Assembly (NCBI GenBank): GCA_951406725.2
Contig: OX597829.1
Span: forward strand, 39,308,001 to 39,372,000
Reading direction: 5' to 3'
Length of the DNA stretch: 64,000 nt
Source of the DNA: Octopus vulgaris
Lineage: Eukaryota
In this document: one piece after another, positions 13,463-41,520 of the stretch
Position numbering within the stretch: position 1 is the stretch's first letter
Layout: every line of letters begins with the position of its first letter
Position numbers and translations under genes: made by a program
The notes under the pieces: generated by a model
Databases searched by the model: none
Told to the model about the DNA's origin: nothing
Seen by the model: the letters and a program-made list of their open reading frames with translations, nothing else

Positions 13463-14030
13463 TATTTCTTTACTACCCTCAAGGGGCTAAACACAGAGAG
13501 GACAAACAAGGACAGACAAAGGGATTAAGTCGATTACATCGACCCCAGTGCGTAACTGGTACTTAATTTATCGACCCTGAAAGAATGAAAGGCAAAATCG
13601 ACCTCGGCGGAATTTGAACTCAGAACGTAGCGGCAGACGAAATACCTATTTCCATATTACCCACAAGGGGCTAAACATTGAGGGGACAAACAAGGACAGA
13701 CAAAGGGATTAAGTCGATTACATCGACCCCCAATGCGTAACTGGTACTTATTTAATCGACCCCGAAAGGATGAAAGGTAAAGTCGACCTCGGCGGAATTT
13801 GAACTCAGATCGTAGCGGCAGACGAAATACCTATTTCTTTATTATCCACAAGGGGCTAAACACAGAGGGGACAAACAAGGACAGACAAAGGGATTAAGTC
13901 AATTACATCGACCCCAGTGCGTAACTGGTACTTATTTAATCGACCCCGAAAGGATGAAAGGCAAAGTCGACCTCGGCAGAATTTGAACTCAGAACGTAGC
14001 GGCACTCGAAATACCGCTAAGCATTTTTCC
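13463..14030 (-). mobile_element. tRNA-derived SINE family A, head-to-tail trimer
   Basis: Units begin on + at 13463, 13647 and 13832 (period 184-185). B-box GAGTTCAAATTCC; central GCCTTTCATCCTTTCGGGGTCGATAAATTAAGTACCAG (resembles Meta/MESC-type SINE domains); 3' end ..TAAAGAAATA. Confidence 0.9.
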
Positions 14031-14340
14031 AGCGCGGTATAGGTGATTATATCGATAGTATTATTGTAACAGGTACTTATTTTTACTGTCCTCGAAAGAG
14101 AAAGTCACTGTCAGTTTCGATTTATACTGAGCGAAAATTGATCCCGGCTATCGATCATTTTTGTTTCCTTGACAGCATTAGTAACACTTAGACACAAATA
14201 CTACAAATATTGGTTCGAGGGTAGGATTGATTCCTCCTTTTTATTTTTAATTGGTATGGTTTAGAGAAAAAGGCAGTGACTATGGGCCTTTCCTGGCTCT
14301 CTGAGATCGGTGAAATAACACAGTTAACGATTCTCTAGAG

Positions 14341-14541
14341 CAGTGGTTTTCAACCAGGGTTCCGCCAGTACAGTCCAGGGGTTCCGCAAGAAGTTACAAA
14401 ACTGCTAAAATCGGCAGTAATTTTTAATTCTCCTGTGCAGATATGTGTGCATAAGTCTATTAAATTATTGCACAGGGGTTCCTCGAGCCAGTGGAATGCT
14501 TCCTTGGGGTTCCGCTCCAGCAAAAAGGTTGAAAAGCACTG
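14341..14541. mobile_element. hAT (Charlie-like) MITE
   Basis: TIRs CAGTGGTTTTCAACC / GGTTGAAAAGCACTG; 8-bp TSD CTCTAGAG / CTCTAAAG, matching the nTCTAGAn target preference. Confidence 0.85.
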
Positions 14542-15132
14542 CTCTAAAGTAACAGTATAGCGGAAACAAAGTTCACACTGTGCATTACTTTGAAAACTGC
14601 CCACTCGCACCGCGTTCCTGACTAAACCGGAAAATTCCTTATTTCTACCAGGACTCGCGACTCTTCATGCGAAATGAACTGGTTTTGGAAATGGACTATT
14701 TATTCTGTGCTATAAGCTATTACAGTGTTATGAAAAACTATGTAGATGCAGGGCTGTCTTTGTAGTATTACAGGCCCCCGGACAAATCAATGCTCTGGGA
14801 CCTATAGTATTTATTTATTGACAGCAATACATAAATGAAATTGGGTCCCTTTACCCTTGTCCGATATGCCCACGCCTTCGAAAAGTACTATATAAATGAA
14901 CACTAAATGTCAGGCCAGAACAGAAAAAAGGTTAGTTGTCATAGCCTAGATTTGGCTTTCCCCGCTTCCAAAAACGTAACATAACTTCAACTACAGCAAT
15001 CTCGTGTCAATAAAGCGGCGGCCAAATGTGGTTTGCAGCACACCCTATGTTAGTTATTTATGACCTACGAATTTTGAGGGAGAGAAAACTATTGTTCCTC
15101 AAAAGCAGGACTCTTTGGGAAAGAATTATCTC

Positions 15133-15550
15133 GGATCTTTTCGGTTTGAACGGCAGTTTTTAACATAATTTCTAGATAACTAAAAAAATTTTAACTTCTT
15201 ATACTGGTAGAAATGTGTTTATAAAACATCTTTTTCTCTTGGCTTTATTGAGAAAATTCTATAGTTTGTAAGATATTTGTTGTTTTTTTTCTTCAATTTC
15301 TGCAATTTCAACCAATCACTGACGTCTATTGAGGTAAAAAAAAAATTCTGTGCCGTATGAATATGTCCCTCGTTTAAGTAACAGATTGGGTTTATTTACA
15401 TTTCTGAAGAAAAAAGATACCCTTCCCCCACCCCTAACCCTAACCCTAAAACAGATTGAAATGCAATAGATCGATACTAGGGTCATAATTATGGGTGACA
15501 ATTTCATATGACACCGCTAGAAAAAACTGCCGTTCAAACCGAAAAGATCC
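15133..15550. mobile_element. MITE with 5'-GG TIRs and 8-bp TSD (Merlin-like), carrying (TTAGGG)3
   Basis: 29-bp TIR GGATCTTTTCGGTTTGAACGGCAGTTTTT at both ends; exact TSD ATTATCTC; CCCTAACCCTAACCCTAA at about 15431-15448. Confidence 0.88.
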
Positions 15551-17949
15551 ATTATCTCTATCATAAAGTGTTCTGGTCCAGTTATGAGTACATCTTGCAC
15601 AATATGTGTACATTATATATACATACCTGTGACTCATATGTAAATTATACATTCAGCGCTGATTATCAAAATGCTTAATGAGCAAGTTAACGCGGGGCCT
15701 ATAGTTTACATCTGACTTGGCCCCTTGGTACCAGTTGAAATAATGATAGGAGAGAACAAATGTTTTCCTTTAATTCATTTGTCTGTGTGCGTAAAAATTC
15801 TTATGCGGTGCAAAATGTCTTTCTTTCTATGACAAAAAGCATGTACATACAGAATGTTTGTGCAAATGTAAACCTAAGAATTACTTTTATTTCAGCATGA
15901 GAATAATGACACATTTTAAGCATTAGTCTCTCAGCAATTGCATAGAAATGGTGGGAGGGAGACAAAATTAAATAAAGAAAGAAAAGAAAGTAAACTTCAA
16001 GAAAACCTGTTCTTCTAAATGAGCACAAAGACGATTTATAGAAGTCAAAAGCGAACTTGTTACGACCGATACAGTTGGTTGTGAGATCATTTTCAATAAC
16101 GGTACTAATTAATTGCTACATTATCTTAGATAACTTGTCTTTTGTGCACTGGTTGCGAAATACGTGTGCACGCGCAGAAACTAGAGGGAATATTCAGGTT
16201 GCTACATTTTACACCTGGCCCCCAGCCTGTTAATCAGCTTTTACAGGGCCAGACGTGGCTCTGAGGTTAGTAGTTTGCTTCCCAAAACTCATGATTTCGG
16301 GTTAGGTCCACTACGTGGAACCTTGAAAAAGTGCCTTCTACTATAGACGAGGGCCAACCAAAGGCTCGCTAGAGGATTTGGTTGAAGGAAACTTTAAAAA
16401 AGCCTATCACACACACACACACACACACAGATAATATGTATGTGTGTCTTTGTGATGTCCCCCCACCACGTTTCACAATCGGTTTTGTTTTCTTAGCGTC
16501 CTCGTAACTTAGCGGTTCAGAAAAAAGAGCACGATGGAATAAGTACTAAGCTTCAAAACAAAAACAAACGAAAAAAAAAGGTACCAAAGTCGAGGATCGA
16601 TTCGTTCCTCAAAAAACCCTTCAAAACGTTGCCTCAGTATGACCGCGCTCCAATGACTGCAGCAAATAAAAGGATTCGATTCTATAGAGAAGAAGACTGC
16701 TTGTATGATAATTATCGTGCTGTAAGATTTCTCTGCAGACAAACCAGCTGTACAGCTAGTCCCATTACAATGAAGCAGTCATCAACACGTTGCCTTCTAT
16801 ACCCTACGCAGTTAACAGTGCAAGCAACTAACATTACGAGTCAATAAACAAACAAACACATCGCTTGTGTTCACCGACTTCTCGTGTTATATTTTGGAAC
16901 GTCAACATTACTTCATTTCAGATTAATACAGCATTTTTCCGCGGGGTTGACGGGCAGTTCCCTTCCCTCCCCGGGATAAACACGCGAAAATTGCCAGAAA
17001 AAAATAAAAAATAAAAAAGTTCACTAATTGTTACGTTTAAAACAGTTAAAATGGTTTTAAACTTATTAAAACTTGTCCGACATCATGGCAAAGAAAAGAA
17101 AAAAAGACATAATTATACAAGTTTGACTCCCCGCCGACTTTGTGGTCTCATAACTTTCAGAAAAATTGGTATTTTTTAATGAAATTTTCTTCATATTTCT
17201 TTCGGATAATGTAAATTGTGATTATGCTGAAATTTATTGTGAACAACTTTTTCAGAGGTGGTGGGGAAGAAATTTCGGACAATCCAAACAAGTCGACTAA
17301 CTTGTTTCATTAAAAAATTGGTATTTTTTAATGAAATTTTCCACAAATACCCTTCAGGTGGTGTAAACTACAATTATATCGGAATTTAATGTAAAAAGGA
17401 AAACTGGTGGGTTTCACACATCATATACTTATACGTATCTACAAAATAAAACTAAAAATTTTGGAAGATTTATCAATTGTGTCAATATGTATGCGCGCGC
17501 CTATCAGATTATATTATTATTTTACATCTACTCTACCTGAAAAGTGTTTGTAGAAAATTTCATTAAAAAAATCCATTTTTCTAACAGAGGCAGGGGGCAT
17601 ACTTCTGTAGGTATGACAGAAAATACATACGCGCACACACACACACACGGATACAAAATGCATTTTGCTTTCTCATTAATAAAACATGTGACGTGGGCCG
17701 AGAAGATTTTTCATTGGTACTTCTCATTTTGAAAACCAGTGGTCTAATCATTGCTGATAAGTTGTCAGTAGCGATGAGAACTTTGATCAGTTTTATCGTG
17801 TTTCACTTAATTTTTATTTCATCTTATTTTCTGATCAACAAACATAATTGCAACTATTATTATTAATATTTTTAAAGTAGCAAACTGGCAGAATCATTAT
17901 CATGCCAGTCAAAATACTTAGCGGTATTTCGTCCGTCTTTACGTTCAAC

Positions 17950-20666
17950 TTTGGATCATGATTCTAGCGTTCCGCTCCCTAACTGATGGTAGCTATCTCT
18001 GACTCGAGTTGTCATTCATTAACTAACTGATTGAGTTGTCACGAGCCAACTAATTGATTTTTACTTGGGGTTCTTGCTTTTATAACTATCCAGAAGGATA
18101 AACATATCGCTGAGAACAATGGATTTAGTTGGTGGTATTTGTTATCATAATTCGAGCTTTTGTGGTCTATGAGAGGTTAGAAAGGTCAAGTAGTGAAAAC
18201 ATTATTTTGGCCTAGCTAAGGCATCTGGAAAATGTAAAACTACTGTCACAGAAAAAAAACCCCATTGTTTCACCATGAGAAAAGTTCTGTTGAAATGTTA
18301 ATTTGAATTTGGCTATGGTGGATCGATTCCATTTCATGCCTGCAAGATCCACTACATCCCCCCCCCCCCAGTGCGGCTCCGAGGAAAGGAAACGAACGAT
18401 CGAAGGAGAGAAAGAAATGCATGGTTGAGGAGAAATTTTGCAAATCAGGAGAAGGGATCGTTGAAGTATACACGGGACAATTTTCTATTCGGATTAGTTC
18501 GAATAGCGGTGTCGCTTTGCGTGCCAAAATATGTGCAGTCAGTGACTGGGCAGTACAGCAAATGAGTGTGTCTGTGCGCGTGAGGGCGTATACACGAGTG
18601 CAGGGACACGTATCAAAATTCACTGAAAAATAAGCTCAGGTGAGCGAGCGAGTGAGTGTATTCTCAATCCGTGATATGAAAGATCTTCCTGCAGGGTTGC
18701 AGTGTGTGAAATGCCTTGAAAGTTTTTCCGAAGTGAAATGTGTCTGGTGCTGTTGTCATGGGTAATTGATGAGGTTAGCAAGGACGACAGTGTAAGCGTG
18801 CTGGAGTGATGCGCAAGATAGATAATTTTCTCTATTAACTTCGTGACCAAACAGGGGGGAAATCATGACTAAACATGAGTGCAGAGCATGTGAACGTTCG
18901 ACGTGCATTGAGTCGGGGAAAATGTTGAGCTGATACAGACGTATTGCAAAACAAGGCCGTAGATTCATAATAGAGGTGTATGAGCACAGGGCTTGCAAGG
19001 CTGAGGCAGATATGCTAGTCATTGATTACAAATACAGTGTACAGTATTGAATATGCCAGTGGTTAAGGCAGTGATGAATATAGCAGCCGGTGCATGAGGT
19101 ATCATATGCCTCGATCATGCAGGAGCAAAAGTGTGGCATGCTGGCGCGTTGAAAGGGACAAACAACTTTCTCTATGTATGCGTGACCGACCTAGGGTCTT
19201 ACAGAGATTAGCTGTGTCTACAAGGGCCTAGGGAGTATGAAAAACAAGCGAGAAAGGCATGTGTGGGACATGAATGTGACAGAGTTAATAGGTGTGTGTA
19301 TAACAATGTGTGCAAATGGAAAGGTGCATGCGAAGAAACAAATTACAGACATTCAAAAGAAGAACATTTAGCAGAAACCAGGTAATAAAAACAGGTGAAC
19401 AATGCGTGTGCGGTGCAAACATAACAAAACGAATGAAGTAAAAATGACAAACTTGGTTAGAAAGTCTTCTGGTCCTGGTAAGCTAAAAAGTAGCATTTGA
19501 AATGCAAAAATAGGTGCATGCAAAGTATGTTCAAGCCTATGGCTGTCGAAAAAGTTGCGCGTGTGGGCTTCCATATTTTTATTGGCTTCCATGATCGGCA
19601 AATTCCTTACGTATCAGCAGTGTTGCATTTTCGTGGAGTGCATCGTAGTGTCGATCGCAGGATATAGAGCTTTTTGTAGCAGGTCGAAGGAAGGTGCATC
19701 TTGGTGGTGACGAAGGTTGTCATTCTTTTCCTTTGGTTTAGCGACTATTGATGTGAAGGCGGTAGTTCTTTAGTTCGAAGTCAGCAAAAATGCAGCAGCA
19801 TATAACTTCAGAAGGTAGCAATTCTTTCCACACGGAGTCACCAATTTGATGGTAATGTAGCTTCAGAAGGCAGCAATTCTTTCGCTCGGGGTCACCAGTT
19901 GTTAGGGTTGAAATTTATTGCAACGGCATGTTGTAAGATGTGAAAGATGAACAATGTAAGAAGTTTTGAGGAAATATTTATTTATCGTTACATTGACTAT
20001 ACCTTGCCTCGACGGGCAGGTGATAAAATCCTAGAGCATGCTATGTAAAGTTAGATGTAGTAGATTTTCCTTGTATAGTTTTGTGTACACGTTTTCTTAG
20101 CAGCAATCCACAGATAGCGATAGAATGATGTTGAAAGGGAACATAATTAGAGCTAGTTAAAGTTGTAGAAAGATGCCTCATGGTTGCTGACAGTAAATTT
20201 CATTTCTCCCTTAGACTATTGTCTTTAGTAGCTGCCTTGCTTTGGATCATGATTCTAGCGTTCCGCTCCCTAACTGATGGTAACTGATTGAGTTGTCACG
20301 AGCCGACTAATTGATTTTTGCTTGGGGTGCTTACTTTTATAACTATCCAGAGTGATAGACATCGTTGAGAACAATGGATTTAGTTGGTAGTATTTGTTAT
20401 CATAAATGGCGGTGCCCCAGCATGGCCACAGCTCGTGAGCTGAAACTAGATAAAATAAAATAAAATAAAAATAATTCGAGAAGTTAGAAAATTCAACTGG
20501 TGAAAACATTATTTCGGCCTAGCTAAGGCATGTGGAAAATGTAAAACTGCTGTCACAGAAAAAAAAAAAAACTATTGTTCCACCATGAGAAAAGTTCTGT
20601 AGAAATGTTAATTTAAATTTGGCTATGGTGGATGGAATCCACTTCATGCGTGCAAAATCCATTACA
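17950..20666 (-). mobile_element. Gypsy/Ty3 LTR retrotransposon relic (5' LTR 19900-20666; truncated 3' LTR about 17950-18356)
   Basis: Two direct LTR copies starting TGTA on the minus strand. PBS TGGTGACCCCGA (19897-19886) is complementary to the tRNA-Trp 3' end. PPT G12 (18358-18369) abuts the 3' LTR. Heavily decayed gag/protease/integrase-like residues lie between. Confidence 0.85.
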
Positions 20667-20832
20667 GATCAATCGAAAGCTTCTGACCGTCAACACTTGA
20701 CAGCTCTTCTCACGGCAGTCGGTTTCGGTCCCATCTTCCGTGGTTGGATCCCCGCAGTGTACAGCGATATCTGCTCGGTGATTCGGGTGAACGGTTACCT
20801 ATCCGAATCATTCAACATCATACACTCGTCCA
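20667..20832 (+). mobile_element. L1/Tx1-clade RT fragment, interrupted by the Gypsy LTR
   Basis: DQSKASDR..QHLTALLTAVGFGPIFRGWIPAVYSDICSVIRVNGYLSESFNIIHS matches the Tx1-type RT stretch DQxKAFDRV..GFG..F..WI..LY..VRVNG.LS..F. Confidence 0.8.
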
Positions 20833-21864
20833 TAAAAATCGAAGAAAGTGCTGGCGAAAAACCGAACATATCTGGTTGAGTTCGAGAAACATGTACCATC
20901 ATAGCCTGAGACTAGACACCTTCTAATCTAGTTTACACTGTTTCTGCTTCCTTAATAACTCTTATCGATTCTACTTTAATCACTCTTTTCAGGACGATCC
21001 ACTATTTGTTGTTGACGATCGCCCCAGTCAACAACTAATTCACTAATCTGGTCTGTGTAAACATGACGAGTCGAGAGCAACAAGTTCAGTTTCCGGCAAA
21101 ATTTTTGCGAGGCGGAACAAGGTTGCTTTCGGAACCTACCTAAGATGAGGTAACCCATTAGAAATTTGAGAGGCTCCCCCTTCTATCTCTGACTTCTTCT
21201 TTGGATCCCTGAGCCCTCTGAATATTAGATATTCTGAGGTATGGCCGCATTATGGTTAGAAGCGTGTGGTTTTATGTTTAATCCTCGTACTACACCTTCG
21301 GCAAGGTTTCTCACCACAGCCTTGGACTGAACTGTACTTTGTGAAATAAATTTGATAAACAAAAACTGTAATGAATTTCGTAGTCCGTGATTCGATTCGG
21401 ATCACCTGTTACACCCTGTAACAAAATTTTTATTATTTTTGTCTTTGGTCAGTAAGTGTAATTTCCTTTTTGCTTTTATAGAAATCAAAGGAAATGACTA
21501 CTATTCCCTTCAAATTTTTGTGACCTGGACATCAATGTTTTGAAACTGACCTATTTTCCATTACATTTCAGACAAATTCAGTACCATATTGCTGAAGCAG
21601 AAATATCGTTACAACAAATATTCTGCTCAATCCAACAGATTTGCTTGTCAGTTATTTGACCTTAATCACTTGAGCATGTCTCTAGGTGGCTGATATTATA
21701 TTCATCTCTGATCATGAGCAGAAGTAGTGGGGGAGTACCATAGCCATGGATTCTTTGTGGGTTTGAATAAAAGTAACAAAAGCAAGGTTTGAAGGAAATA
21801 TTAACCATTTTTCATACTTTCTAGGGGTGAGCAAATAGGAAAAAATAGTTTCTGTCCAAGAACA

Positions 21865-22760
21865 TGTAGTGGATCTTGCATGCATGAAGTGGATTCCATC
21901 CACCATAGCCAAATTTAAATTAACACTGCAACAGAACTTTTCCCACGGTGGAGCAATGGTTTTTCTTCGACAGCAGTTTTACATTTTCCAGGTGCCTTTA
22001 GTTAGGCCGAAATAATGTCTTCACCACTTGACCGTCTCTAACCTCTTCTACTTCACCAAAAACTAGAATAGAAATAACAAGATCACCAACTAAATCTATT
22101 GTTCTCACTGATATGTCTGTCCTTCTGGATAGTTATAAAAGCAAGAACACTCCAAGCACAAGTCAATCGGTGACGACTCAATGAGAACGAACTCTGACTG
22201 ATCAGCTAGAACCATGGTCAGAAGGAGAAATGAAGTTAACTGTCAGCAACTGTGAGACAACGTCCCACTCCCTACGACTCTCACTAGCTCTAATTCTGTT
22301 CTCTTACAACATCATTCTATCTCTCTCTGTAATTACTACTAAACATCGAAGAGGATACAAACACAAACTTTACTTCGCATGCTTTTGGATTTATCAAAAC
22401 CTGTCCGTCGAGACAAGGTATTGTAACGTAACGGTAAATAAATACTTCCTTAAAACTTCATGTATTGTTCATCTTTCACATCCTACAGTATGAAATTATA
22501 ACAACAAAAATTTTATCGTTGCAACTGCTGACTCCGACATTTCATATTAATGTGTACCTAATCAATCTTACCCGTTACAATTTGTAACTACTCCGAAATA
22601 AAACCTTACCGTTACAATTGGTGACCCTCGACTTCAACTAAAAACTTTATCGTCACAGACATAATCATGTCTACCGGAAGAATTGTTATCCAAAGCTGCT
22701 CCACCTGAAGAATCGTCACCACTATCTTCAGTGAACAGAGTTTCTACAATTAGAATAATA
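21865..22760 (+). mobile_element. Second Gypsy relic: 5' LTR (21865-22616), PBS and start of gag
   Basis: TG...CA LTR homologous to 19900-20666 in opposite orientation; PBS TGGTGACCCTCGAC at 22619; gag-like ..SSVNRVSTIR, cut off by a Helitron. Confidence 0.82.
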
Positions 22761-22764
22761 TAAA

Positions 22765-23128
22765 TTGGCACTATGACTCGGCAACGCCGGGTCATAGTGC
22801 TAGTGCATGCATATACAGCTGCGTGCGTGCGCACATACACGCGTGTACTGTCCAAATCTCCAACCAATCACATACAGCTAGCTGGCATTCAATTGGCGTA
22901 TCAAGTTTCGGGCATTTTGATTGGGTTTTGGATAGAAAATTCACAAAAAAGTCACTTCTGTCGATTTTTTTAAATGGCATTGCGGGATGACTGGGGAAAT
23001 GTAAAGATGTGCACGACCACCTTTGGATGGTTTTGAATGACCATAGAAAGTGCAAGCCCTCTAACTGAAAAATTGTGGATTTGTATAAAGGACACGCACG
23101 CAGACATTTTGCCGTTTATATATAGAGA
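22765..23128 (-). mobile_element. Non-autonomous Helitron family H2
   Basis: 5' TC(TC)TATATATAAA end, palindromic 3' end GCACTATGACTCGGCAACGCCGGGTCATAGTGC; homologous to 38369-38708. Confidence 0.75.
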
Positions 23129-23479
23129 GAAATATTCCGAGATGTACTGTTCAAGAAAATGATTTGATCTGAAACCGTGTGTTAAAAACTAAAACAATGA
23201 CCGCGTGGGAAACACATATTAGTCACTCGAAAACGCCTAAAGACTTAATTTTACTTCGGTGGATTGTCAACTTCACCTAGACATTTATTATTTAGTGATT
23301 CGACTGGCTGTTTTCCTTTATGATTAAAATATTAATAAAAATAATATATAACTGAAATCACAATATATTTTTTTTAAATTCTCTTTTACTTCTTTCAGTC
23401 ATTAGACTGCTGCCATGCTGGGGCACCACCCCGAAAGGTTTTAGTCGAATAAATCGACTTCAGTACATTTTTTTAAAGT

Positions 23480-23863
23480 CTAGCGGTGTCATATGAAATT
23501 GTCACCCATAATTATGACCCTAGTATCGATCTATTGCTTTTCAATCTGTTTTAGGGTTAGGGGTCGGGGGAAGGGTGTCTTTTTTTCTTCACAAATTTAA
23601 ATACACCCAATCTATTTCTTAAACGAGGGACATATTGATACGGCACAGAATGTTTTTTTTTACCTCAATAGACGTCAGTGATTGGTTTAAATTGCAGAAA
23701 TTGAAGGAAAAAAACAATAAATATCTTACAAACTATAGAATTTTCTCAATAAAGCCAAGAGAAAAAGATGTTTTACAAACACATTCTACCAGTATACGAA
23801 GTTTAAAATTTTTTAGTTAACTAGAAATTATGTTAAAAACTGCCGTTCAAACCGAAAAGATCC
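23480..23863. mobile_element. Merlin-like MITE copy lacking its left TIR
   Basis: Reverse-orientation homologue of 15133-15550; ends AAAACTGCCGTTCAAACCGAAAAGATCC. Confidence 0.85.
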
Positions 23864-26771: not shown

Positions 26772-27147
26772 CACCACTCATTATCTTTTTCAAGGATAGT
26801 TAGCTAATAGATCGTGCATTCGGGGCACAATTTGAAAGGTAAGGCCCTCCAGTATATAAATGGCATTGTCAACCCGGGAGTTAGGTCTCTTAGTGAGAGG
26901 AAAAAATCTCATTCCAAAAGAAAAGTCATTGTTTTAATAAATGTTATTGTCACAAGGACGGTAGTAGACTTAAATTTCTTACTCCAGCAGAAACTGAAAA
27001 ATGCCTTGAAGAATTATACCTCCAAGTTATACACACATATAAAAGGAAACACTAGGGGACTGTACCTGCTGAATGTGTCATCAAAATCAGCAAACAAGGA
27101 AATCAAAGAATGGCAACAATAATATGCACCTCTCAGACGTTTATAAT

Positions 27148-27623
27148 GGTGAGCTGGCAGAAATGTTAGCATGCCTAGCGAAATGTGTAGCCGTATTTCG
27201 TCTGTAGTTACGTTCCGAGTTCAAATTCCGCCGAGGTCGACTTTGCCTTTCATCTTTTTGGGGTTGATAAATTAAGTACCAGTTACGCACTGAGGTCGAT
27301 GTAATCGACTTAATCCCTTTGTCTGTCCTTGTTTGTCCCCTCTGTGTTTAGCCCCTTGCGGGTAGTAAAGAAATATACACACACACACATAAGGCAGCAA
27401 GCTGGCAGAAATGTTAGCACGCCGGGCGAAATGTGTAGCCGTATTTCGTCTGTAGTTACGTTCCGAGTTCAAATTCCGCCGAGGTCGACTTTGCCTTTCA
27501 TCTTTTCGGGGTCGATAAATTAAGTACCAGTTATGCACAGGGGTCGATGTAATCGACTTAATCCCTTTGTCTGTCCTTGTTTGTCCCCTCTGTGTTTAGC
27601 CCCTTGTGGGTAGTAAAGAAATA
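27148..27623 (+). mobile_element. Two adjacent full SINE-A monomers (27148-27375, 27393-27623)
   Basis: Each has its own tRNA-like head; they share diagnostic variants (TGTGTAGCCG, GTAGTTACGTTCCGAG, CATCTTTT), suggesting local duplication. Confidence 0.9.
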
Positions 27624-28621: not shown

Positions 28622-29103
28622 GGAAGAGTCAGACACAAGAAGAGGTAATGTGGTGGACAAGGCTGAGAGGAATGAAGATAAATATTTTCCTTTTCAGCCA
28701 ATCCTGCCTCAGCTTTTTCACATTCCACTTGAAAAGGAAAGTAAAGATGGAGAGGGATGTGCTACCTGCAAATATTTTCGTTGAAAGGTGAGCGAATATG
28801 GTGAGGATAGTCCATGTGAATGAGCCTAATCTGACCATGCACCTGTAGGCTGGATGGAATTAAGAGGAGAGGGGTGCATGCCTGAAGTGCTCTTGGTGAT
28901 CAGAGTGTCCAGGTCTTGTGGGCTTCCTTGATTTCCCATAGGTGGAACTCCCCACATTCAGGAAATTTCAATGTTTAATATTTTACTGTTAAATTGTAAT
29001 TGTTTTACTGTCAACACATGCTACATATAAACCCAATTATCCCTTGTTTTGTATCACCCTTTTTTTTTTGTTTTGTGTGGCCCTTGTGATCATTGAAGAA
29101 AGA
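28622..29103 (+). mobile_element. L1/Tx1-clade LINE 3' end (ORF2 C-terminus and 3' UTR)
   Basis: Manual translation EEVMWWTRLRGMK..FFTFHLKRKVKMERDVLPANIFVER* aligns with ORF 63001-63198 and Tx1-type C-termini. Confidence 0.7.
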
Positions 29104-29341: not shown

Positions 29342-29373
<32 letters not shown>

Positions 29374-30892: not shown

Positions 30893-31230
30893 GTGAAGGC
30901 GCATGGCTCAGTGGTTAGAGCATCGAGCTTATGATCGTGAGGTTGTGAGCTTGAATCCCGGACTGGGCTGCGTGTTGTGTTCTTGAGCAAGAAACTTTAT
31001 TTCACGTTGCTCCAGTTCACTCAGCTATAGAAATGAGTTGCAACGTCACAGGTGCCAAACTGTATCGACCTTTGTCTTTCCCTTGGATAACACTGGTGGC
31101 ATGGAAAGGGGAGGCTGGTATGCATGGGCAACTGCTGGTCTTCTATAAACAACCTTGCCCGGACTTGTGTCTAGGAGGGTAACTTCCTAGGTGCAATCCC
31201 ATGGTCTGTGTTGTGACCGAAGGGGGTCTC
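30893..31230 (+). mobile_element. tRNA-derived CORE-like SINE related to family C
   Basis: TGGCTCAGTGGTTAGAGC A-box, TTGAATCCC B-box, TTCTTGAGCAAGAAACTTTATTTCACGTTGCTCCAGTTCACTCAGCT shared with 28470-28530. Confidence 0.75.
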
Positions 31231-31856
31231 AGATATATTCAAAAGGGAGACAGCACCAGCTATAATATTTTGTCTCAAAATATTGCAGCCAGTGTCTTTT
31301 CCTATTTGAATTAAACATTTACAGGGCATTTGAGCTAAATTTGACAATTTTTTTATGTTTCCTCGTTTCAAGAACAGCTTCATGTATTGGTGAACAGTTA
31401 ACAGTGTCGGAGAACCTGAAAATGAAAGTTGTAGTTGAGAAAAAGTTAGCGGGCATGGAGGACTTGAAGCCATCAGAATATTGGAAACAGTTACCTTTAT
31501 TATGATGATTCATACCTAGTATCAAAATTTACTTACTTGTACTTGTGGCAACATTCACCCTGGGTGGGTTGAGTCGGCTTCTTCTACTCATGGAAGAAGT
31601 TTCGTGGGAACATGTGGATTTCACAAGCGGTCCCCAACAATCCCGCATGTGGAGACATCCTGTTTGCCACAGATTGTCCACAGACGCAGGGACAGAATGA
31701 CCAAGGAGCCACCGGTTACCGAAGCAGACACTCTGAGGATTTTCACCAGAGCCCCGTCTGCCGGGTTGTGGCCCTAATACCACTCGGTGTCAGACCAATC
31801 CGCCTTGGGTGGCCCTACCAGGAACTAAAGTTCCTGACGGCATAGCTCTGACACTA

Positions 31857-32211
31857 CCTGGTTTAGGACTAATGTTGCTGTAATTTAGCCCCAGGAGACA
31901 TCATCTCCAGCTGGCTATACAACACGATCAATGTCCTTATATTTTCGAACAAGGGAATCTAGTACCCCCATTCAGTCCAAAACAATATCTGTGTATCATG
32001 ATTTCTGGGTTATTTCTCTTCATCAGCACTGAATAATTGTTCGGCTAGAGGTGGTACTGCCAAATTCCTGTTTGAAATATATAGTTTTCAAAGTGACAAC
32101 TAGTCACTGATCTATAAATTCGAAAATATAAGGACATTGATCGTGTTGTATAGCCAGCTGGAGATGATGTCTCCTGGGGCTAAATTACAGCAACATTAGT
32201 CCTAAACCAGG
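31857..32211 (-). mobile_element. Fold-back mini-element (93-bp perfect arms) enclosing a minimal hammerhead motif; PLE-like
   Basis: 31857-31949 is the exact reverse complement of 32119-32211; minus strand GTG-CTGATGA-N14-GAAA-TCATGA-TA-CAC at 32029-31991. Confidence 0.7.
31991..32029 (-). ncRNA. Candidate minimal type-I hammerhead ribozyme
   Basis: Intact CUGAUGA, GAAA and UH core; palindromic helix III (AUCAUGAU); stem I GUG/CAC; stem II degenerate. Confidence 0.55.
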
Positions 32212-32687
32212 ATTTCCATGTTATGTTGGCAAAAATCTTTACTTCAAAGTACTGTTGCTGAATATCTCTCGCTGTGAGATTTAAAAATAGTAATTTTCTA
32301 ACCACACTTAGGGTTTTGTTCATTGTTGGATACTATTGGAATTGTGGATTACCTAACAACAATGAACTTCCCTTCATTGATGTATGGTTGTATATATGTA
32401 TGTATGTGACAGACTCTTTTCAGTTTCCATCACTCCATAACAGAATACACTTGCCCAAGGCTGATTCAAGGCTATGGTAGAAGACACTTGCCCAAAGTGC
32501 CCAAAGTGCCATGCAGTGGGACTGAACCTGAAACCATATGATTGGGAAGCAACTAATTGTGGCTGTGCTATAATAAAGGATTAATTAGCTGCTTGTCTTG
32601 TGTCATTATTAATTTTGTGTAGCAAATTTGTGGCATGCTTCACTTTGATACGACTCAATCCTTTATGGATCTCCTGCAATAAAAGCT

Positions 32688-32724
<37 letters not shown>

Positions 32725-33587
32725 ACACCACACACACATATGCATTCATAAAAAGTAAAATTTGACTTTTGTAGTACATAATGTGAGGAAGATTTGACAG
32801 CTATTTCTTGCAGATTGACTCTCTGCATAGAGGCTCCCTTAGTGTTATAATTTAGCCCTAGTCCCCAGGATAACCCTAAACAAGCAGATATGTAGTAAAA
32901 AGCACTCCAGCCGTGACCATTCTGTCTCTTTATAATATATCAGTGACAACACTCTCTAATCTGTTATTCCTCAAGTTGAAGACGGTAGAATGTGTGATCT
33001 GAGGGAGATTTGGCTATTACTTCGTGCAGTATGAGAACGAAGCAGATGCTACTATCTTCGATTCTGACAATTAGAGTGTTTTGGCCGTGATATGTATGCA
33101 GCAGTTTTATTTATATCTTGTCTGTTAGGTAAATATAATGATCATGTATATATCGAGCGCGAACACACGCACACATGGCATTTAGAAATGCACACATTTA
33201 AATGCAGCATATACACACACACGTCATATAGAAATGCACACTAACGCATACATTAGACATAGCACACACACACACACGGCATATAGAAATGCACCCAAGC
33301 ACATGCACTAGGCATAGCACGAGCGCGCGCGCGGACACTCGTTCATTACAGCCTGATGCTATTGCTAAGTAAATAGTTGTAAGAATGGAATGTGTTTCGT
33401 TTAATGTCATTTATATATTTGCTTTGTCTAACGAGAAAACACTTGGAAATAGTGACATGAATGCTCTCCTTCCTTTTGCATTCTCTCTCTTCCTTTTTCT
33501 CTCTTCCTTTTCTATTCTCTTTCTCTCTCTCTTTCTTTCTTTCTCTCTCTCTCTATTTTTCTTTCTCTTTCTTCTCTCACTTTCTTC

Positions 33588-33632
<45 letters not shown>

Positions 33633-33946
33633 TAACTTACCATTTCTGTCTCACACTCACACACATAGGTAAACATAAACGTACAAAAACAATAAAAATT
33701 GTATTTTGTTTTGTAATTTCCCTGGAGATTCGAGATCCGTGTTGATAATAACACATAATTTAGAAAATATTGGATCTACAAAATTTTATTTTTCTTGCAA
33801 TTGGTGTTATATAAGAAGCTGTACATTTACAACGAATCACATATTGACAAAAGAATAGAAAAGTATTGTTTTTATATTTTTATGTGTCCTGTGTTTTAAG
33901 TCATAAATACATTTTAACAAAATGAGCAGCTTATATGTAGGTAGAA

Positions 33947-34360
33947 GGTGGCGAGCTGGCAGACACGTTAGCATGCCGGGCGAAATGCTTAGCGGTATTT
34001 TGTCTGTCGTTACGTTCTAAGTTCAAATTCTGCCGAGGTCGACTTTGCCGTTCATTCTTTCGGTGTCGATAAATTGAGTACCAGTTTCGCACTGGGGTCG
34101 ATGTAATCGACTTAATCCTTTTGTCTGTCCTTGTTTGACCCTCTGTGTTTAGCCCCTTGTGGGTAATAAAGAAATAGGTATTTCGTCTGCTGTTATGTTC
34201 TGGGTTAAAATTCCGCCGAGGTCGACTTTGCCTTTCATCCTTTAGGGGTCGATAAATAAAGTACCAGTTTCGCACTGGGGTCGATGTAATCGACTTAATC
34301 CTTTTGTCTGTCCTTGTTTGTCCCCTCTGTGTTTAGCCCCTTGTGGGCAATAAAGAAATA
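33947..34360 (+). mobile_element. SINE-A dimer (second unit headless)
   Basis: Junction AATAAAGAAATA|GGTATTTCGTCTG at 34176/34177. Confidence 0.9.
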
Positions 34361-34536
34361 TATATGTAGATAACCAGTAAATACCTTTTATTCCCCAACT
34401 TAAATTTGATGGAGAACAGCAATAACAACAACAAAAATGTATTTACTACGTGTGGAATTGTGGTCAGGTTTCAGTCCTTAGATGTAGCTGTTTAACTTTC
34501 TACATTTATGTTGTACAAAATAAGGAAGTCAAAACA

Positions 34537-35400
34537 TGTATGTATGTATGTATGTATGTATGTATGTATGTATGTATGTATGTATGTATGTATGTATGTA
34601 TGTATGTATGTATGTATGTGTGAATGTATGTGTGAATGTATGTATGTATGTATGTATGTATGTGGGAATGTATGTGTGTATGTATGTATATGTAAGTATG
34701 TATGTATGTATGTGTGAATGTATGTGTGTATGTATGTATATGTAAGTATGTATGTATGTGTGAATGTATGTATGAATGTATGTATGTGTGAATGTATGTG
34801 TGTATGTATGTATATGTAAGTATGTATGTATGTGTGAATGTATGTGTGTATGTAACGTATGTATGTATGTATATATATATATATATATGTGTATATGTAT
34901 GTATGTATGTAATGTATGTATGTATGTGTGAATGTATGTGTGTATGTATGTATATGTATGTATGTATGTGTGAATGTATGTATGTATATGTATGTATGAA
35001 TGTATGTATATGAATGTATGTATATGTAAGTATGCATGTATGTGTGTATGTATGTATATGTAAGTATGTATGTATGTGCGAATGTATGTGTGTATGTATG
35101 TATATGTAAGTATGTATGTATGTGTGAATGTATGTGTGTATGTATGTATATGTAAGTATGTATGTATGTGCGAATGTATGTGTGTATGTATGTATATGTA
35201 AGTATGTATGTATGTGTGAATGTATGTGTGTATGTATATGTAAGTATGTATGTATGTGTGAATGTATGTATGTATATATATGTATGTGTGTATGTATGTA
35301 ATGTATGTATGTAGGTATGTAGGTATGTATGTATGTATATATATATATGTGTATGTGTGTATGTATGTATGTATGTATGTATGTATGTATGTATGTATCT
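34537..35400. repeat. Large compound (TATG)n microsatellite with higher-order units
   Basis: Seen directly; recurring TGTGAATG and TATATGTAAG variants. Confidence 0.98.
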
Positions 35401-36011
35401 ATGATAAATCTCTCTTAAAACATTCACAGTAACGTAAGTATATAGACACAAGTAATATCAATATACACTTATAGACTAATGAATACACACAGTAATATAC
35501 TCAAATACATGCTGGCAAAGACTGTCACCAGCCTCTGGGCAGTCATTCAAGCTGCTAGAAATAGCAGTTACAACTTCTTCAAATTCCTATTTTTAAAAAA
35601 GGAATAACACATTACATTGTGTAGTTCATGATAAACAAGAATACAGGATGATTTTGATGAAATGTTTCTTACTATAGTTTAATTTGGTCATAGCTAGTCT
35701 AGTGCAAATTAGCAACAAATATGGGAGCCCCCAAGCAGTCATTTGAATTGCAAAAATAGCAGCCAAATTTTATTCAGATCAGAAAAATAGAATTACACTT
35801 AAAACAATGTAGTACATGATATAGGTGCAGGAGTGGCTGTGTGGTAAGTAGCTTGCTTGCCAACCAGGTGATCCTGGGTTCAGTCCCACTGAGTGGCACC
35901 TTGGGCAAGTGTCTTCTACAGTAGCCTTGGGCCGACAGAGTGTGTAATTCTTGGACTTGTCAGATCCTGTCAAACCATCCAATTCATGCCAGCATGGAAC
36001 AAGGCTATTAA

Positions 36012-36043
<32 letters not shown>

Positions 36044-36487
36044 AGTATATATATGGACTTTTGGAACAACACAATATATTGTTCTGTTTGAAAAGTTTAT
36101 TTCTGTCTGATGACCAGTCTGTCTGTCCATCTGTCTATTCCCCCCTCTCTCTCTCTCTACACACACATACAGTGGCCATTAAGTATGAAGCAAAAGCCAA
36201 GCCCCAGGGGGCTGGACAATCTTACACAAAGCACTACATCGAACACATGGAAAGTCCATTCAAGAAAACCATACTAACCATATCACCTCATCTGGGAGGT
36301 GTGATAAACAGAACATAACCTCTTCTGCCTAAGCATACATAATATTTGAAGGAGATGGCTGCTAACTTTGATAACATAGGAAGCAATTAGAGAAATGCAA
36401 GCCATATTCTAATGGCAACAGAAAATGCAGACTATGTTGAGGGGAAAAGAGAAATATGTAAAAACTCTCTTATGTCCAGGTTATACC

Positions 36488-36893
36488 TATTTCTTTACTA
36501 CCCACAAGGGGCTAAACACAGAAAGGACAAACAAGGACAGACAAATGGATTAAGTCGATTACATCGACTCCAGTGCATAACTGGTACTGAATTTATCGAC
36601 CCCGAAAGGATGAAAGGCAAAGTCAACCTCGGTGGAATTTGAACTCAGAATGTAACGGCAGACGAAATACCTATTTCTTTACTACCCACAAGGGGCTAAA
36701 CACAGAGAGGACAAACAAGGACAGACAAATGGATTAAGTTGATTACATCGACCCCAGTGCATAACTGGTACTTAATTTATCAACCCCGAAAGGATGAAAG
36801 GCAAAGTCAACCTTGGCGGAATTTGAACTCAGAACGTGGCAGCAGACGAAATACCGCTAAACATTTCGCCCGGTGTGCTAACGATTCTGCCAG
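36488..36893 (-). mobile_element. SINE-A dimer (second unit headless)
   Basis: Same junction at 36671/36672; period 184. Confidence 0.9.
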
Positions 36894-37524
36894 GAAACGA
36901 AAAAGGATGAGAAGAAGGGAGAAAAAAAAGAGAGTGAGAGAAAGACAGGGTAAAAAGGATAAAGGAAGAAAAGAAGGAAGAGCGAGAGGATAAGCAAAAG
37001 AAGGGAGAAGAGAAAGAAAGTGCTGGTGGAATGAAGCTGAGAAGAAATATAAGATGGAGTAAAGGTGTACAGGTGTACACAAGAAATGTTCAGGTAGAAG
37101 GAACATTAAACCCAATGACAAGTTGAACCCAGTATCTGATTAGATATTTCTGTTCGTGCAAATAAAGTGTAAAGTTCTCTGATTTGGCATTCAGGTATAA
37201 CGCCGTGCACAGGTTATACCTGAATGCCAAATCAGAGAACTTTACACTTTATTTGCACGAACAGAAATATCTAATCAGATACTGGGTTCAACTTGTCATT
37301 GGGTTTAATGTTCCTTCTACCTGAACATTTCTTGTGTACACCTGTACACCTTTACTCCATCTTATATTTCTTCTCAGCTTCATTCCACCAGCACTTTCTT
37401 TCTCTTCCCCCTTCTTTTGCTTATCCTCTCGCTCTTCCTTCTTTTCTTCCTTTATCCTTTTTACCCTGTCTTTCTCTCACTCTCTTTTTTTTCTCCCTTC
37501 TTCTCATCCTTTTTCGTTTCCTGG
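36890..37524. repeat. Near-perfect palindrome: 312-bp arms, 11-nt loop
   Basis: 36890-37201 is the reverse complement of 37213-37524 with one mismatch that I could find; mirrored ORFs 36807-37121(-) and 37293-37739(+) agree. Confidence 0.95.
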
Positions 37525-37614
37525 TACTTTCACTTTTCCTTTCTGTCTTTCTATGCCATGATTCTGCCTTTAGCTTCTCTTTCTCTCTCTTTCTTTGTTT
37601 CTCTCTCTCTCTCT

Positions 37615-37659
<45 letters not shown>

Positions 37660-38368
37660 ACTCTCTCTCTCACCAGGGACATAACTCTTTGCCTCTTAAC
37701 CTTGGGTTACTGTCCCTGCACTGTAACCCCATAATATAAAAAAATATTTTACTTTTGTTTTCCCTGAAGTCTTTGAATGCAAAACGCATTTCCTCTGCAG
37801 CCATCTTTACAGAGTGCATTCTAGATCTTATACGAGCACATTTGGTGCCATTGTGGATTTGTATAAAGGACAGACACACACACAGACATTTTGCTATTTA
37901 TATATAGAGAGATGTGTGTGTGTGTGCATGTGTGTATGTTTGTGTGTCTGTGTTTGTCGTCCCCCCCCCAACATCGCTTGACAACCGATGCTGGTGTGTT
38001 TACGTCCCTATAACTTAGCGGTTCGGCAAAAGAGACCGATAGAAAAAGTTACTAGGCTTACAAAGGAGGTGGTATTCCAGCATGCCCAGTGACAGAAACA
38101 AGTAAAAGCTGAAGGTATATTATTTGGCAAAACGCAAAACAGAATTTTATTTACTGTTCAGACTTTAGCAAAAGAAGGGAGCAATCAGCCTACTAAAAAG
38201 AGCAGCCAAATCTCCCTTACCAAAAAAAAAAAAAAGTAAAGAAAAGCTGACACGGTGGATGTTTAATCTGAAAAACAGACATGATAGTTACAGTTGAAAC
38301 ACATGAAAACCTAAATCCAAACAAGCAGGACTGACTGAAGTTTTGAGAACTATTCTTTTATTCATGAA

Positions 38369-38708
38369 CTAGCATATTGACCCGGCAACATCGGGTCATA
38401 GTGCTAGTGCTTACAAAGTGCTTTCAAAGGAGTGCTTACATACACGCGAGTACTGTCCAAATCTCCAACCAATCACATACAGCTAGCTGGCATTCAATTG
38501 GCGTATCAAGTTTCGGGCATTTTGATTGGGTTTTGGATAGAAAATTCACAAAAAAAGTCACTTCTATTGATTTTTTAATGACTTTGCGGAGTGACTGGGC
38601 GGTTTTGAATGACTATAGAAAGTGTGAGCCCTCTAACTGAAAAATTGTGGATTTGTATAAAGGACACACACACAGACAGACTTTTTGCCATTTATATATA
38701 TATATAGA
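38369..38708 (-). mobile_element. Helitron family H2, complete termini
   Basis: A|CTAGCATATTGACCCGG..GGGTCATAGTGCTAG at left, ..TATATATAGA|T at right (TC..CTAG on the minus strand, A/T target). A further 5'-end fragment lies at about 37850-37912. Confidence 0.8.
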
Positions 38709-38977
38709 TTCTTTTACCTGTTTCAGTCTTTGCTCTGAATCGACCCCCAGTACTTTTTCCTTTTAAGCCTGGTAGTCATTCCATCAGTCTTCTTTGTCAA
38801 AATACTAAGCTGTGGGGATGTAAACACTAAGACTCACACACATCATGGGCTTCTCTCAGTTTCTGTCAACCAAACCCACTAACAAGGCTTTACTTGGCCC
38901 AAGGTACCATGCTGAGGGACTGAACCCAGAACTGTGTAATTGGGAAATAAAGTTCTTATCGCATGGCCACACCTGCA

Positions 38978-39013
<36 letters not shown>

Positions 39014-39052
39014 AACAAACGTACTTAGAAATGGATGCGTGCATTCTGTCGT

Positions 39053-39143
39053 ATAACAAATTAATAAATAAAACATATGCACATATACAAACATATATGT
39101 ACGTACCTACATATATGCATATGTTTTATTTATTAATTTGTTA

Positions 39144-39144
<1 letters not shown>
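39053..39144. repeat. Short fold-back (29-bp arms), same family as 40316-40827
   Basis: Arms 39053-39081 / 39116-39144; spacer ATACAAACATATATGTACGTACCTAC is shared with 40345-40370. Confidence 0.85.
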
Positions 39145-39177
<33 letters not shown>

Positions 39178-39479
39178 CTGATTAACAATGTTCTAGCATG
39201 CATGACACATTAAACTCACGTTTCTACATATTTAATGTAGTCATTGGTTATGGCTGGTCAGAAAGTTACCATTGGTTTCATGTCTGTTACTGCTCTTAGC
39301 AATATAGTCAACTCATCAAAGATGCCGGCCAGAGGGACATAAACTCTTTGCTAATGGAGATAAGAATACCATCTTGGTCAGTAAGTTTGTGAAAAAAAAA
39401 CTCCAGAAATGAAATTTTTTCCATGTGGAACTCCCTTCTATGTGAGATGGTGTTATCTCCCTTTGATCAGCACTATTTG

Positions 39480-39870
39480 TGTACAATTTATGTACAATTT
39501 TTGTTTACTAGCCAGCAAGAGGGGAATTCCATGTCTTTAACATGAATCTTTTCTTATGATGGCACCAACTAAACAACTCGCTTTTAGACTTTATGAAGGC
39601 TCCTCAGTCATGTCCTTAATTTCTTTTGGAAATGCCCTCTAGGTTGACTCAATTCTTGTAATGTTTTGTTTTGTGTGGGGAGGCCACAGTTGGCAGCAGT
39701 GGTCTTTGTGTTGTTGAAAAGGGGGAAAAAAAGGGAAATGATGATACCTTGCTCTCTGGACCTGAAAGTTCTGAGGATCCAAGATCTCATCCTGTGAGTC
39801 ATAATGGTTTTACTGCTGATGTGGGCACTTCAGCTGTTAACTGTTGTCAGCAATCACTCCGGATATTGTA
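39480..39870 (-). mobile_element. Decayed CR1-clade RT C-terminal fragment
   Basis: ORF 39608-39802 ..RMRSWILRTFRSRE.. is typical of the CR1/L2 region after the RT core. Confidence 0.65.
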
Positions 39871-39904
39871 ATTCCCATGAAAGAAGAGAATATGGTTGTT
39901 TAAG

Positions 39905-40296
39905 TAGTTGTGGCTGATGCCAGTGTCTCATACTTGGCACCCATGCCAGTGGCATGTAAAAAGCACTCTTCGATCTTTGCGTTCTCATGGAGGCAGTGAC
40001 AAGTGATCAAGACGTTTGGTAATATACTATTCTTGAGAAGACCTGTAAAGCCAAGTGAAATCATTGTTATGGCCAATGCTGGTGTTTTGTAACTGGCACC
40101 CATGCTGGTGGCATGTAAAAAGCACCCACTACATGCTTGGAGGGCTTGGCATTAGGAGGGGCATCCAGCTGTAGAAGCCATGCCAAATCAGATGGAAACC
40201 TTAGTGCAACTCCTCAGCTTACCAGTTTTCAGACAACCTGTCCAACCCATGCCAGCATAGAAAACAAATGTTAAAGGATGATGAAGATGATGATGA
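39905..40296 (+). mobile_element. RTE 3'-UTR/tail copy
   Basis: GGCATGTAAAAAGCAC units, GGGCATCCAGCTGTAGAA and (GAT)n tail. Similar copies at about 41940-42130, 48735-48970(-), 49660-49897, 59772-60047, 61420-61700, 62150-62355 and 63860-64000(-). Confidence 0.8.
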
Positions 40297-40315
40297 TATA
40301 TATATATATATATAT

Positions 40316-40827
40316 ATAGTGTAATAAATAAAATATATGCATACATACAAACATATATGTACGTACCTACATCTACATGTACATATACATGCATATATAA
40401 ATATATATGTAAGAACAGGACACCACAACTAGACGTAGAACTCATCGAGAAACGAAAACGGAAAAACAAGCATGGAACAAACCATTATTTTATAACAGAA
40501 AAACAGAGTACAAGACAAACTACACAAGGAAAAATCCCCTTCATCAGCTGTCCCTAGTTCGACTTTAGCGTGTTTCGAAGGTAAGACAGAACACGACTCG
40601 TCGAAACTAGCCCTTCCTGTGAGAGAATTAAAATAAAATTACTTCGCAGAGGGGTAAAAACAAGAAAGAAAAAAATAAAATGTAACACAAACATTTTATG
40701 AGTTCTACGTCTAGTTGTGGTGTCCTGTTCTTACGTATACATTTATATATGCATGTATATGTACATGTAGATGTAGGTACGTACATATATGTTTGTATGT
40801 ATGCATATATTTTATTTATTACACTAT
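40316..40827 (-). mobile_element. Fold-back mini-element (130-bp arms) with degenerate hammerhead-like motifs in the spacer; PLE-like
   Basis: 40316-40445 vs 40698-40827 inverted with 2 mismatches; minus-strand spacer CCTTC-GAAA-CACGC-TA..GGACAG-CTGATGA-AGGGG. Confidence 0.6.
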
Positions 40828-40900
40828 TGTTTGACAGCGCCCTTGCGTCGATTCGATTCGATTCGTTTGTTTCGTTCCGTTCTTCTTCTTCTCCAAGTAC

Positions 40901-40943
<43 letters not shown>

Positions 40944-41119
40944 TATATAACTGGGGGGAATTATCTCTAACTCTCCATTCCTGTCTTCATGGCCCTGTTC
41001 ACTGTATCATTGTTATCCAGTAAGTCCCTCCACTACATACCCAGGTTTTCATCATTCACTACATTCTACTCCCCCACTCTATACTCGTGCTTCTTTGGCA
41101 ATACTCTACCACTTATATC

Positions 41120-41520
41120 TATTTCTTTACTACCCACAAGGGGCTAAACACAGAGAGGACAAACAAAGACAGACAAATGGATTAAGTCGATTATATCAGA
41201 CCCAGTGCATAACTGGTACTTATTTAATCGACCCCGAAAGGATGAAAAGCAAAGTCAACTTTGGCGGAATTTGAACTCAGAACATAGCAGCAGATGAAAT
41301 ACCTATTTCTTTACTACCCACAAGGGGCTTAAACACAGAGGGGACAAACAAGGACAGGCAAACGGATTAAGTCGATTATATCAACCCCAGTGTGTAACTG
41401 GTACTTAATTTATCGATCCTGAAAGGATGAAAGGCAAAGTCGACCTCGGTGGAATTTGAACTCAGAACGTAGTGGCAGACGAAATAGCCCCACATGCTAA
41501 CATTTCTACCAGCTCGCCGC
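41120..41520 (-). mobile_element. SINE-A dimer (second unit headless)
   Basis: Same junction at 41303/41304; period 184. Confidence 0.9.

Follow-up and report, generated by a model that had tools for sequence, protein, structure and literature searches.

The stretch analysed here, called the window throughout, comprises 64,000 nucleotides of Octopus vulgaris DNA (contig OX597829.1, positions 39,308,001 to 39,372,000) and contains four tandem arrays built from a short interspersed element (SINE) that we call SINE-A. An earlier note on this DNA, made from the letters alone, had described a trimer and three dimers of this element, and all four arrays were found where it had placed them. SINE-A is a short, dispersed, high-copy, noncoding element whose motifs gave exact matches in the tens of thousands, and its consensus of 231 nt, built from 150 copies, consists of a tRNA-like head, a central part, and a tail. 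Motifs resembling A and B boxes lie at about positions 10 to 21 and 75 to 85, as judged by eye against the box consensus; in tRNA scans of the SINE, ARAGORN returned 0 genes and Rfam gave no tRNA match. A sister family, SINE-B, has positions 1 to 166 in common with SINE-A and different tails. SINE-A may resemble the octopus OK, OR1, or OR2 elements, MetaSINE, or another named family. The features of the window, including the target site duplications (TSDs) around two of the arrays, are as follows.

13273..13292, minus strand: 3' copy of a 20-bp TSD
13293..13462, minus strand: headless, diverged SINE-B body with a B2-type tail, matching a mixed B consensus in 133/174 columns
13463..13646, minus strand: SINE-A body unit 3 (positions 48-231), 184 nt, 177/184 to consensus A
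13647..13831, minus strand: SINE-A body unit 2 (positions 48-231), 185 nt, 172/185 to consensus A
13832..14015, minus strand: SINE-A body unit 1 (positions 48-231), 184 nt, 174/184 to consensus A
14016..14036, minus strand: 5'-truncated, diverged head fragment, about positions 27-47, to which the A and B head consensus align equally well
14037..14056, minus strand: 5' copy of the 20-bp TSD, 19/20 identical to 13273-13292
33932..33943, plus strand: 5' TSD copy of a dimer, 11/12 with 34361-34372
33947..34176, plus strand: full SINE-A unit whose tRNA-like head has both the A and the B box motif
34177..34360, plus strand: headless SINE-A unit with a C-type tail (GGGCAAT), then a TATA-type TSD copy at 34361-34372
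36488..36671, minus strand: headless SINE-A unit, GGTAT opening the 3' flank, TSD not found
36672..36893, minus strand: SINE-A unit starting at position 10
41120..41303, minus strand: headless SINE-A unit, flank opening with GATAT
41304..41518, minus strand: SINE-A unit with a small head deletion
56614..56838, minus strand: SINE-A monomer with 3' flank GGTATT and (TAGA)n on its 5' side, TSD not found

All five A-to-A junctions in the window are identical, GAAATA running directly into GGTATTTC(G/A)TCTG, as the earlier note had claimed. Its head loss of about 48 nt was also correct: every downstream unit starts at consensus position 48 and is missing 47 nt, including the A box. The period of 184 to 185 nt needs slight widening, to 183 to 185 nt. 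The trimer does hold three A units, but its end had been misplaced, as the chain runs on through a sixth junction, with the same GAAATA and GGTATTTC, into the headless SINE-B body at 13293..13462. The GGTAT at 13462 is therefore not an outer 3' flank, in contrast to those at 36487 and 56613, which were as described and where a search for TSDs found none. The 20-bp TSD (14037-14056 and 13273-13292, 19/20 identical) encloses the head fragment, the three A units, and the B body. That B body is far more diverged than the TSD, a weak hint that the whole array was pasted at once from a source already holding an old B body. A different kind of repeat lies at 27145-27623 on the plus strand, where two full-length SINE-A copies, 95% alike at a 248-nt period with a (CA)n spacer, share private variants and represent a local duplication unlike the arrays that restart at position 48.

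Across the genome (2.8 Gb, 227 contigs), the exact 22-nt junction was matched 17,122 + 17,665 = 34,787 times, against 0 matches for a reversed control. The junction is a property of the whole SINE family, not of four loci, and is far beyond chance. The go-back joint was also present in contigs of 4/4 runs under four organism codes, a result uninformative on circles, RNA ends, and level. The earlier note had proposed surveying junctions and unit numbers genome-wide; the exact-junction counts have that scope, and the unit numbers come from an unbiased sample of 1.264 Mb from 10 contigs. A further 0.7 Mb was picked by pattern. Overlapping loci (L001, L003, L016, L019, L023, L027, L029, L210, and L239) and exact duplicates were dropped, and junction-selected loci were excluded, where stated, from the counts of AA before heads and of 64C and from the test of derived-allele sharing.

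At the 141 loci of the unbiased sample with a complete A tail, 1, 2, 3, 4, 5, and 6 units were counted 91, 31, 9, 7, 2, and 1 times, a distribution that fits a geometric law (q = 0.37, p = 0.35). Arrays thus made up 50/141 loci (35%) and were present on every contig sampled; the genome-wide counts include one run of 10 junctions. Among all arrays of both samples, 122/140 started with an intact head, while 63 closed with an A unit and 53 with a B body lacking its head; the other 24 were broken or unclear. A TSD core was detected in 56/108 loci, at variable lengths of 11 to 22. Of the 55 listed rows with a TSD, 19 had a single one surrounding an entire array of 2 to 7 units. A+B arrays were also seen enclosed by one TSD. 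The letters AA precede 78/114 intact heads in the unbiased sample and are absent at internal junctions; they are likely to be nontemplated letters added at the RNA 5' end.

The site at which a new unit restarts follows the variant of the tail before it. Among 87 links in the unbiased sample, 70 restarted at 48, 9 at position 15, 4 elsewhere, and 4 more at 47 or 49 or after a repeated GAAATA, so that the one fixed junction proposed from the window holds for its own five cases and is accompanied, genome-wide, by a second junction at position 15. T-type tails (GGGTA.T) led to 67 restarts at 48 and 0 at 15, and C-type tails (GGGCAAT) led to 9 at 15 and 2 at 48. Exact counts over the genome, given as 48 versus 15, were 20,831:106 for the GTAG tail and 480:1,000 for the GCAA tail, an odds ratio of 409. 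Another array type, on contig C28 at about 5.012 Mb (L162), has units restarting at position 126 after B3 tails, meaning that other pairs of tail and restart exist.

Taken alone, the linkage of tail and restart could reflect descent. The same rule governs the outer flanks: after terminal T-type tails (n = 83) came GGT in 40 cases and AGA in 1, against a GGT background of 1.1%, and after C-type tails (n = 24) came AGA in 7 and GGT in 4 (T versus C tail, p = 1.8e-5). T-type tails are followed by GGTAT and C-type tails by AGAA, at ordinary targets and internal junctions alike. These posttail letters are the start of the TSD and are also present 5' of the element. GGTAT stood at TSD distance upstream of 2,561 intact heads, and it was repeated after the tail in 19/22 such loci having a TSD. 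Since the tail rule holds at ordinary TSDs, with GGTAT on both sides, the T-tail lineage prefers GGTAT as its target.

A likely source of the insertion machinery came from the tail itself, which matches the 3' end of a long interspersed element (LINE) with endonuclease, reverse transcriptase (RT), and zinc finger domains (EN-RT-zf) at 38/47 bases, with a score of 49 against a maximum of 33 in 1,000 shuffles; the SINE-B tail gave no significant alignment to the LINE 3' end. The open reading frames (ORFs) of the tail-matching LINEs carry PF03372, PF00078, and PF13966 (AP endonuclease, RT, and zf-RVT), Atlas names them as the LINE-1 ORF2 family, and downstream of the elements lies (TATC)n or (ATT)n. 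Tx1-clade families of the Kibi/Koshi type target microsatellites (PMC4494074). From its domains, Atlas name, and microsatellite targets, the partner LINE would be of L1/Tx1 type. An RTE partner was also considered; among the 30 best PF00078 loci the tails were different, and none matched that of the SINE. When LINEs joined to position 48 were sought, the first 100 of 1,614 matches were almost all SINE tails with repeated GAAATA.

Several LINE relatives were recorded along the way. Decayed C-terminal fragments akin to the EN-RT-zf family (tblastn E ~1e-14) lie in the window at 62974-63186 and 28639-28824, both on the plus strand. On C10 at about 20.088-20.097 Mb (L081-L090) and on C28 (L161-L170), nearly identical L1/Tx1-type LINEs are stacked, with (TATC)n after each copy, and the C22 block contains a relative that has (ATT)n after it. 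At L219, around 1420-1470, the A-like tail of an element that is not a SINE runs into a SINE head at about its position 15; no long ORF lies upstream.

Insertion of SINE-A into its own sequence can be seen directly. The signature of a copy inserted at position 48, a duplicated stretch from 48 to about 62 followed by a new head, was matched exactly 126 times genome-wide, and 12/19 inspected cases consisted of a host head or junction, a new copy, and a restart; an existing junction was the site in five of the 12. Older A or B copies serve as hosts of such insertions, with TSDs. At the antisense site GGTACTT there were 264 exact insertions, and 11/19 inspected showed a split host with a TSD. The counts at both sites fall short of the number of junctions by two orders of magnitude. 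The B-type head marker T19 was present in 8/22 A+B dimers, compared to 13/100 A monomers (p = 0.024) and 45/50 B monomers, which implies that part of the A+B dimers keep the host head. Some junctions, then, probably arose in place without a scar. Derived alleles at 49-63 were common to first and last units in 8 cases versus 2.2 when permuted (47 pairs).

Repeats of two other forms were also noted. Head-only tandem repeats with a period of about 64 to 69 nt (C5:87874181-87875487, C10:17996023-17996501, and C13:69036080-69036321) probably grew from self-insertion TSD structures. Full-length SINE plus TSD repeats at C1:12697586-12698358 and C1:29209996-29210288, with a period of about 247 to 252 nt, have the TSD1-(SINE-TSD1)n form of the clam arrays discussed below.

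Units within arrays are related in two ways. No rare variant was common to both units in 30/36 A-A dimers, and in 62 pairs without common rare variants the subfamily markers agreed at 0.59, versus 0.52 for random pairs; with pairing this close to random, new arrays join different copies. Neighboring units nevertheless shared 137 rare variants versus 8.9 at random, and sharing rose from 0.09 in dimers to 0.20, 0.23, 0.35, and 0.56 in arrays of 3 to 6 units, so that units are also duplicated. A single insertion site in three paralogous segments, with flanks 91 to 97% alike, carries 1, 2, and 3 units, the middle unit of the trimer being foreign; unit number thus changes in DNA after insertion. 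The duplicated segments around this site (contig C28, 5.0-5.1 Mb, L161-L170) contain several long C2H2 zinc finger-like ORFs. The variant 64C was present in 19/33 second units in arrays versus 17/71 monomers (p = 0.002). Old B2 or B3 bodies ended 6/18 B-ending arrays in the unbiased sample, 10/29 B1 array ends were A-type at 61/63, making A-to-B mosaic units common, and the GAAATA-repeat variant of the junction was found on several tail types.

The explanation that we hold to be slightly better than an even bet combines GGTAT-primed self-insertion, partly seamless, with the probable copying of entire arrays by read-through and with exchange of units afterward. Given the homology of the A tail, EN-RT-zf LINEs would mobilize SINE-A, and a borrowed L1/Tx1-type enzyme likely primes the tail at GGTAT, a word that the SINE also carries in its head, at position 48. 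As for why target words follow tails, we lean toward run-on of RNA polymerase III (Pol III) past the tail, with the posttail letters pairing with the nicked target. The longest T run in the consensus is 3, and without the run of four that stops Pol III, such read-through is plausible. To a lesser degree we entertain the alternative that different LINE endonucleases serve different tail variants. Many insertions at position 48 would then heal seamlessly, the new head annealing to the old one, and a head with any number of bodies could be transcribed and pasted as a unit, priming at any tail. Changes of unit number after insertion, seen at the one paralogous site, may be general.

The earlier note had listed GGTAT-specific self-targeting by a Tx1-type endonuclease among its models, and part of it survives in this account: GGT starts 40/83 T-tail TSDs, self-insertions are flanked by TSDs, and the tail matches an EN-RT-zf LINE. 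It has to be amended in that the preference follows the tail variant and in that visible self-insertions amount to less than 1% of the junction count.

That last point heads the evidence that weighs against self-insertion with read-through copying. The 126 visible self-insertions, set against 34,787 junctions, are no more than site abundance would give, and only 5 were recognized by eye among the first 100 listed heads with GGTAT upstream; being so rare, they mean that the seamless-healing and array-copying steps depend on seamless events that escape view or else on source arrays that are productive. The excess of shared alleles at 49-63 is equaled at 141-155 and may therefore be a subfamily effect. 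Most A+B dimers have A-type heads, with position 61 of the first unit B-type in only 4/23, and a 5'-truncated self-insertion turned up just once in 52 junctions. First and last A units were equally diverged (0.027 versus 0.029, n = 61, p = 0.24); an age gap at B ends (0.041 versus 0.077) had the A consensus as its reference and was left out of account. No sibling arrays of one source were detected among 89 (p = 0.7), a weak test at this n. On the side of the RNA, a T4 run is now carried by 112/428 genomic units. Mismatches between TSD copies favored the RNA-like letter in the 3' copy by 20:6 (p = 0.009), a count that includes doubtful microsatellite rows, and matched searches gave 2/5 versus 3/22, leaving RNA templating of GGTAT unproven by TSD asymmetry. 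The tail-matching LINE family, moreover, targets (TATC)n rather than GGTAT, and no GGTAT-targeting LINE was found in the sample of about 2 Mb.

Several of these observations would be expected if chains formed by template jumping within one insertion. RT arriving at position 48 would have a cDNA end, ATACC, equal to the nicked GGTAT target end, and that end could prime again on a second SINE RNA, at its tail, in roughly one pass out of three. Geometric unit numbers, near-random pairing of units, the same age of first and last units, and one TSD per array are consistent with such jumping, and in the hairpin predicted for the head, position 48 falls at the loop. Yet it leaves the B-type heads on A+B dimers and the visible self-insertions unexplained, the enrichment of 64C in arrays means that units are not a random draw, and run-on RNA would still be needed; we regard it as unlikely. 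Descent offers another route, in which a small number of founder dimers multiplied in the manner of ordinary dimeric SINEs and passed on their flank bias and junction, with all further variety added in DNA by slippage, unequal exchange, and ectopic conversion. A tight linkage of tail and junction is what descent also predicts, and the paralogous site with 1, 2, and 3 units and its foreign middle unit, the private variants common within longer arrays, and the frequent A-to-B mosaics all speak for exchange of this kind. What makes founders improbable in our judgment is that new junctions are seen forming, that old B2 and B3 bodies end arrays, that the GAAATA repeat occurs on several tail types, and that no sibling signal appeared. 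The stricter proposal of one multimeric master copy, made in the earlier note, conflicts with two junction types, with last units of A or B kind, and with near-random pairings, in addition to the distribution of the GAAATA repeat.

Joining could instead occur between RNAs, if heads were cut in the loop and headless RNAs were circularized, or ligated to tails by an RtcB-like enzyme, before RT. The junction is precise, whereas AA usually precedes intact heads; RtcB has a precedent in U6/L1 chimeras (PMC6789731); and headless RNA is predicted to bring its ends together through the GAAATA/TATTTC pairing suggested in the earlier note, with a pair probability of about 0.5. In full-length RNA that pairing has a probability of 0, as the native head hairpin excludes it in the predicted fold, and a longer end-to-end duplex was not significant against shuffles (p = 0.076). 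A circle further predicts headless first units and identical units, while heads were kept in 122/140 arrays and units were mixed, and neither the matching TSD bias nor the junction at position 15 is explained; RNA-level joining therefore seems very improbable. Rolling RT on a circular RNA, also put forward in the earlier note and considered by us as a retroposon of identical headless units, was rejected because heads are kept, units are mixed with markers near random, and 53/140 arrays end in SINE-B.

The shape of these arrays is already known. In the blood clam Scapharca broughtonii, TSD1-(SINE)n-TSD1 arrays have been ascribed to unequal recombination, and they too have a tRNA-headed first unit, following units with the same head truncation, and one TSD around the array, of 4 to 15 units (PMC11481361). 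There, however, about 3% of SINEs are in arrays and inner units are also tail truncated, whereas octopus SINE-A forms arrays at 35% of its loci, has complete tails, restarts at two sites that are linked to the tail, and shows a TSD bias to match. Squamate SINE-derived satellites (sSats) likewise combine a tandem SINE part with a longer terminal unit, have units of 150 to 180 nt, and are more homogeneous at longer loci, but they run to hundreds of homogenized units in subtelomeric positions (PMC10702118). SINE-A arrays are short (mostly 2 to 6 units), mixed in subfamily, within a TSD, and on every sampled contig. The longer terminal unit has its counterpart in the headed first unit of 122/140 arrays; the at least four homogenized middle monomers of sSat do not, 6 units being reached by 1/141 loci and dimers being heterologous.

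Parallels in mechanism come from other elements. Crocodilian SINEU-3 and Tx1-Mar have a target preference ascribed to Tx1-clade LINEs and form tandems by sequential insertion (PMC4494074), although their target is another transposon and their tandems sandwich a TSD, whereas the SINE-A word lies in its own head and most junctions are seamless. Near-identical RTE-related SINEs, AfroSINE among them, have different 3' ends that go with different TSD starts, for which pairing of RNA and target has been proposed (PMC6007223). That pairing spans 1 to 2 bases of a microsatellite tail, and the partner is an RTE; in SINE-A it would span 4 to 5 bases, with an L1/Tx1-type tail and a word that belongs to the element's own head. 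For R1A of the Drosophila melanogaster type, cDNA homologous to the upstream target has been proposed to anneal and give precise junctions without TSDs (PMC2718515); since R1A is an autonomous rDNA-specific LINE, the analogy serves for the seamless step only. Arrays of the octopus type were not found in the literature searched, although entries in Repbase or Dfam, supplements, or Ohshima and Okada 1994 may describe the dimer. The combination of a third of loci in arrays, two tail-linked self-junctions, and a TSD bias that matches them was likewise not found in that literature.

These arrays bear on the open question of how tandem repeats grow from dispersed SINEs, for which the clam and reptile papers invoke recombination. 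In the octopus the beginnings can be seen on a large scale, with a tail that predicts both target word and junction, self-insertions marked by TSDs, and paralogues that differ in unit number. With tens of thousands of events, pairing by RNA versus targeting by endonuclease, and the seamless joining of 5' ends, become testable by counting, and annotation of repeats in this genome is affected, as about a third of SINE-A loci are arrays. We tentatively propose, as a conjecture rated somewhat below even, that read-through into an element's own TSD or the next unit acts as a heritable, noncoded guide, passing the target word from copy to copy. In one lineage the guide would be the element's own head, and self-priming on genomic copies or growing cDNA would build chains in positive feedback. 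If true, such a guide loop turns a dispersed repeat into the seeds of tandem ones.

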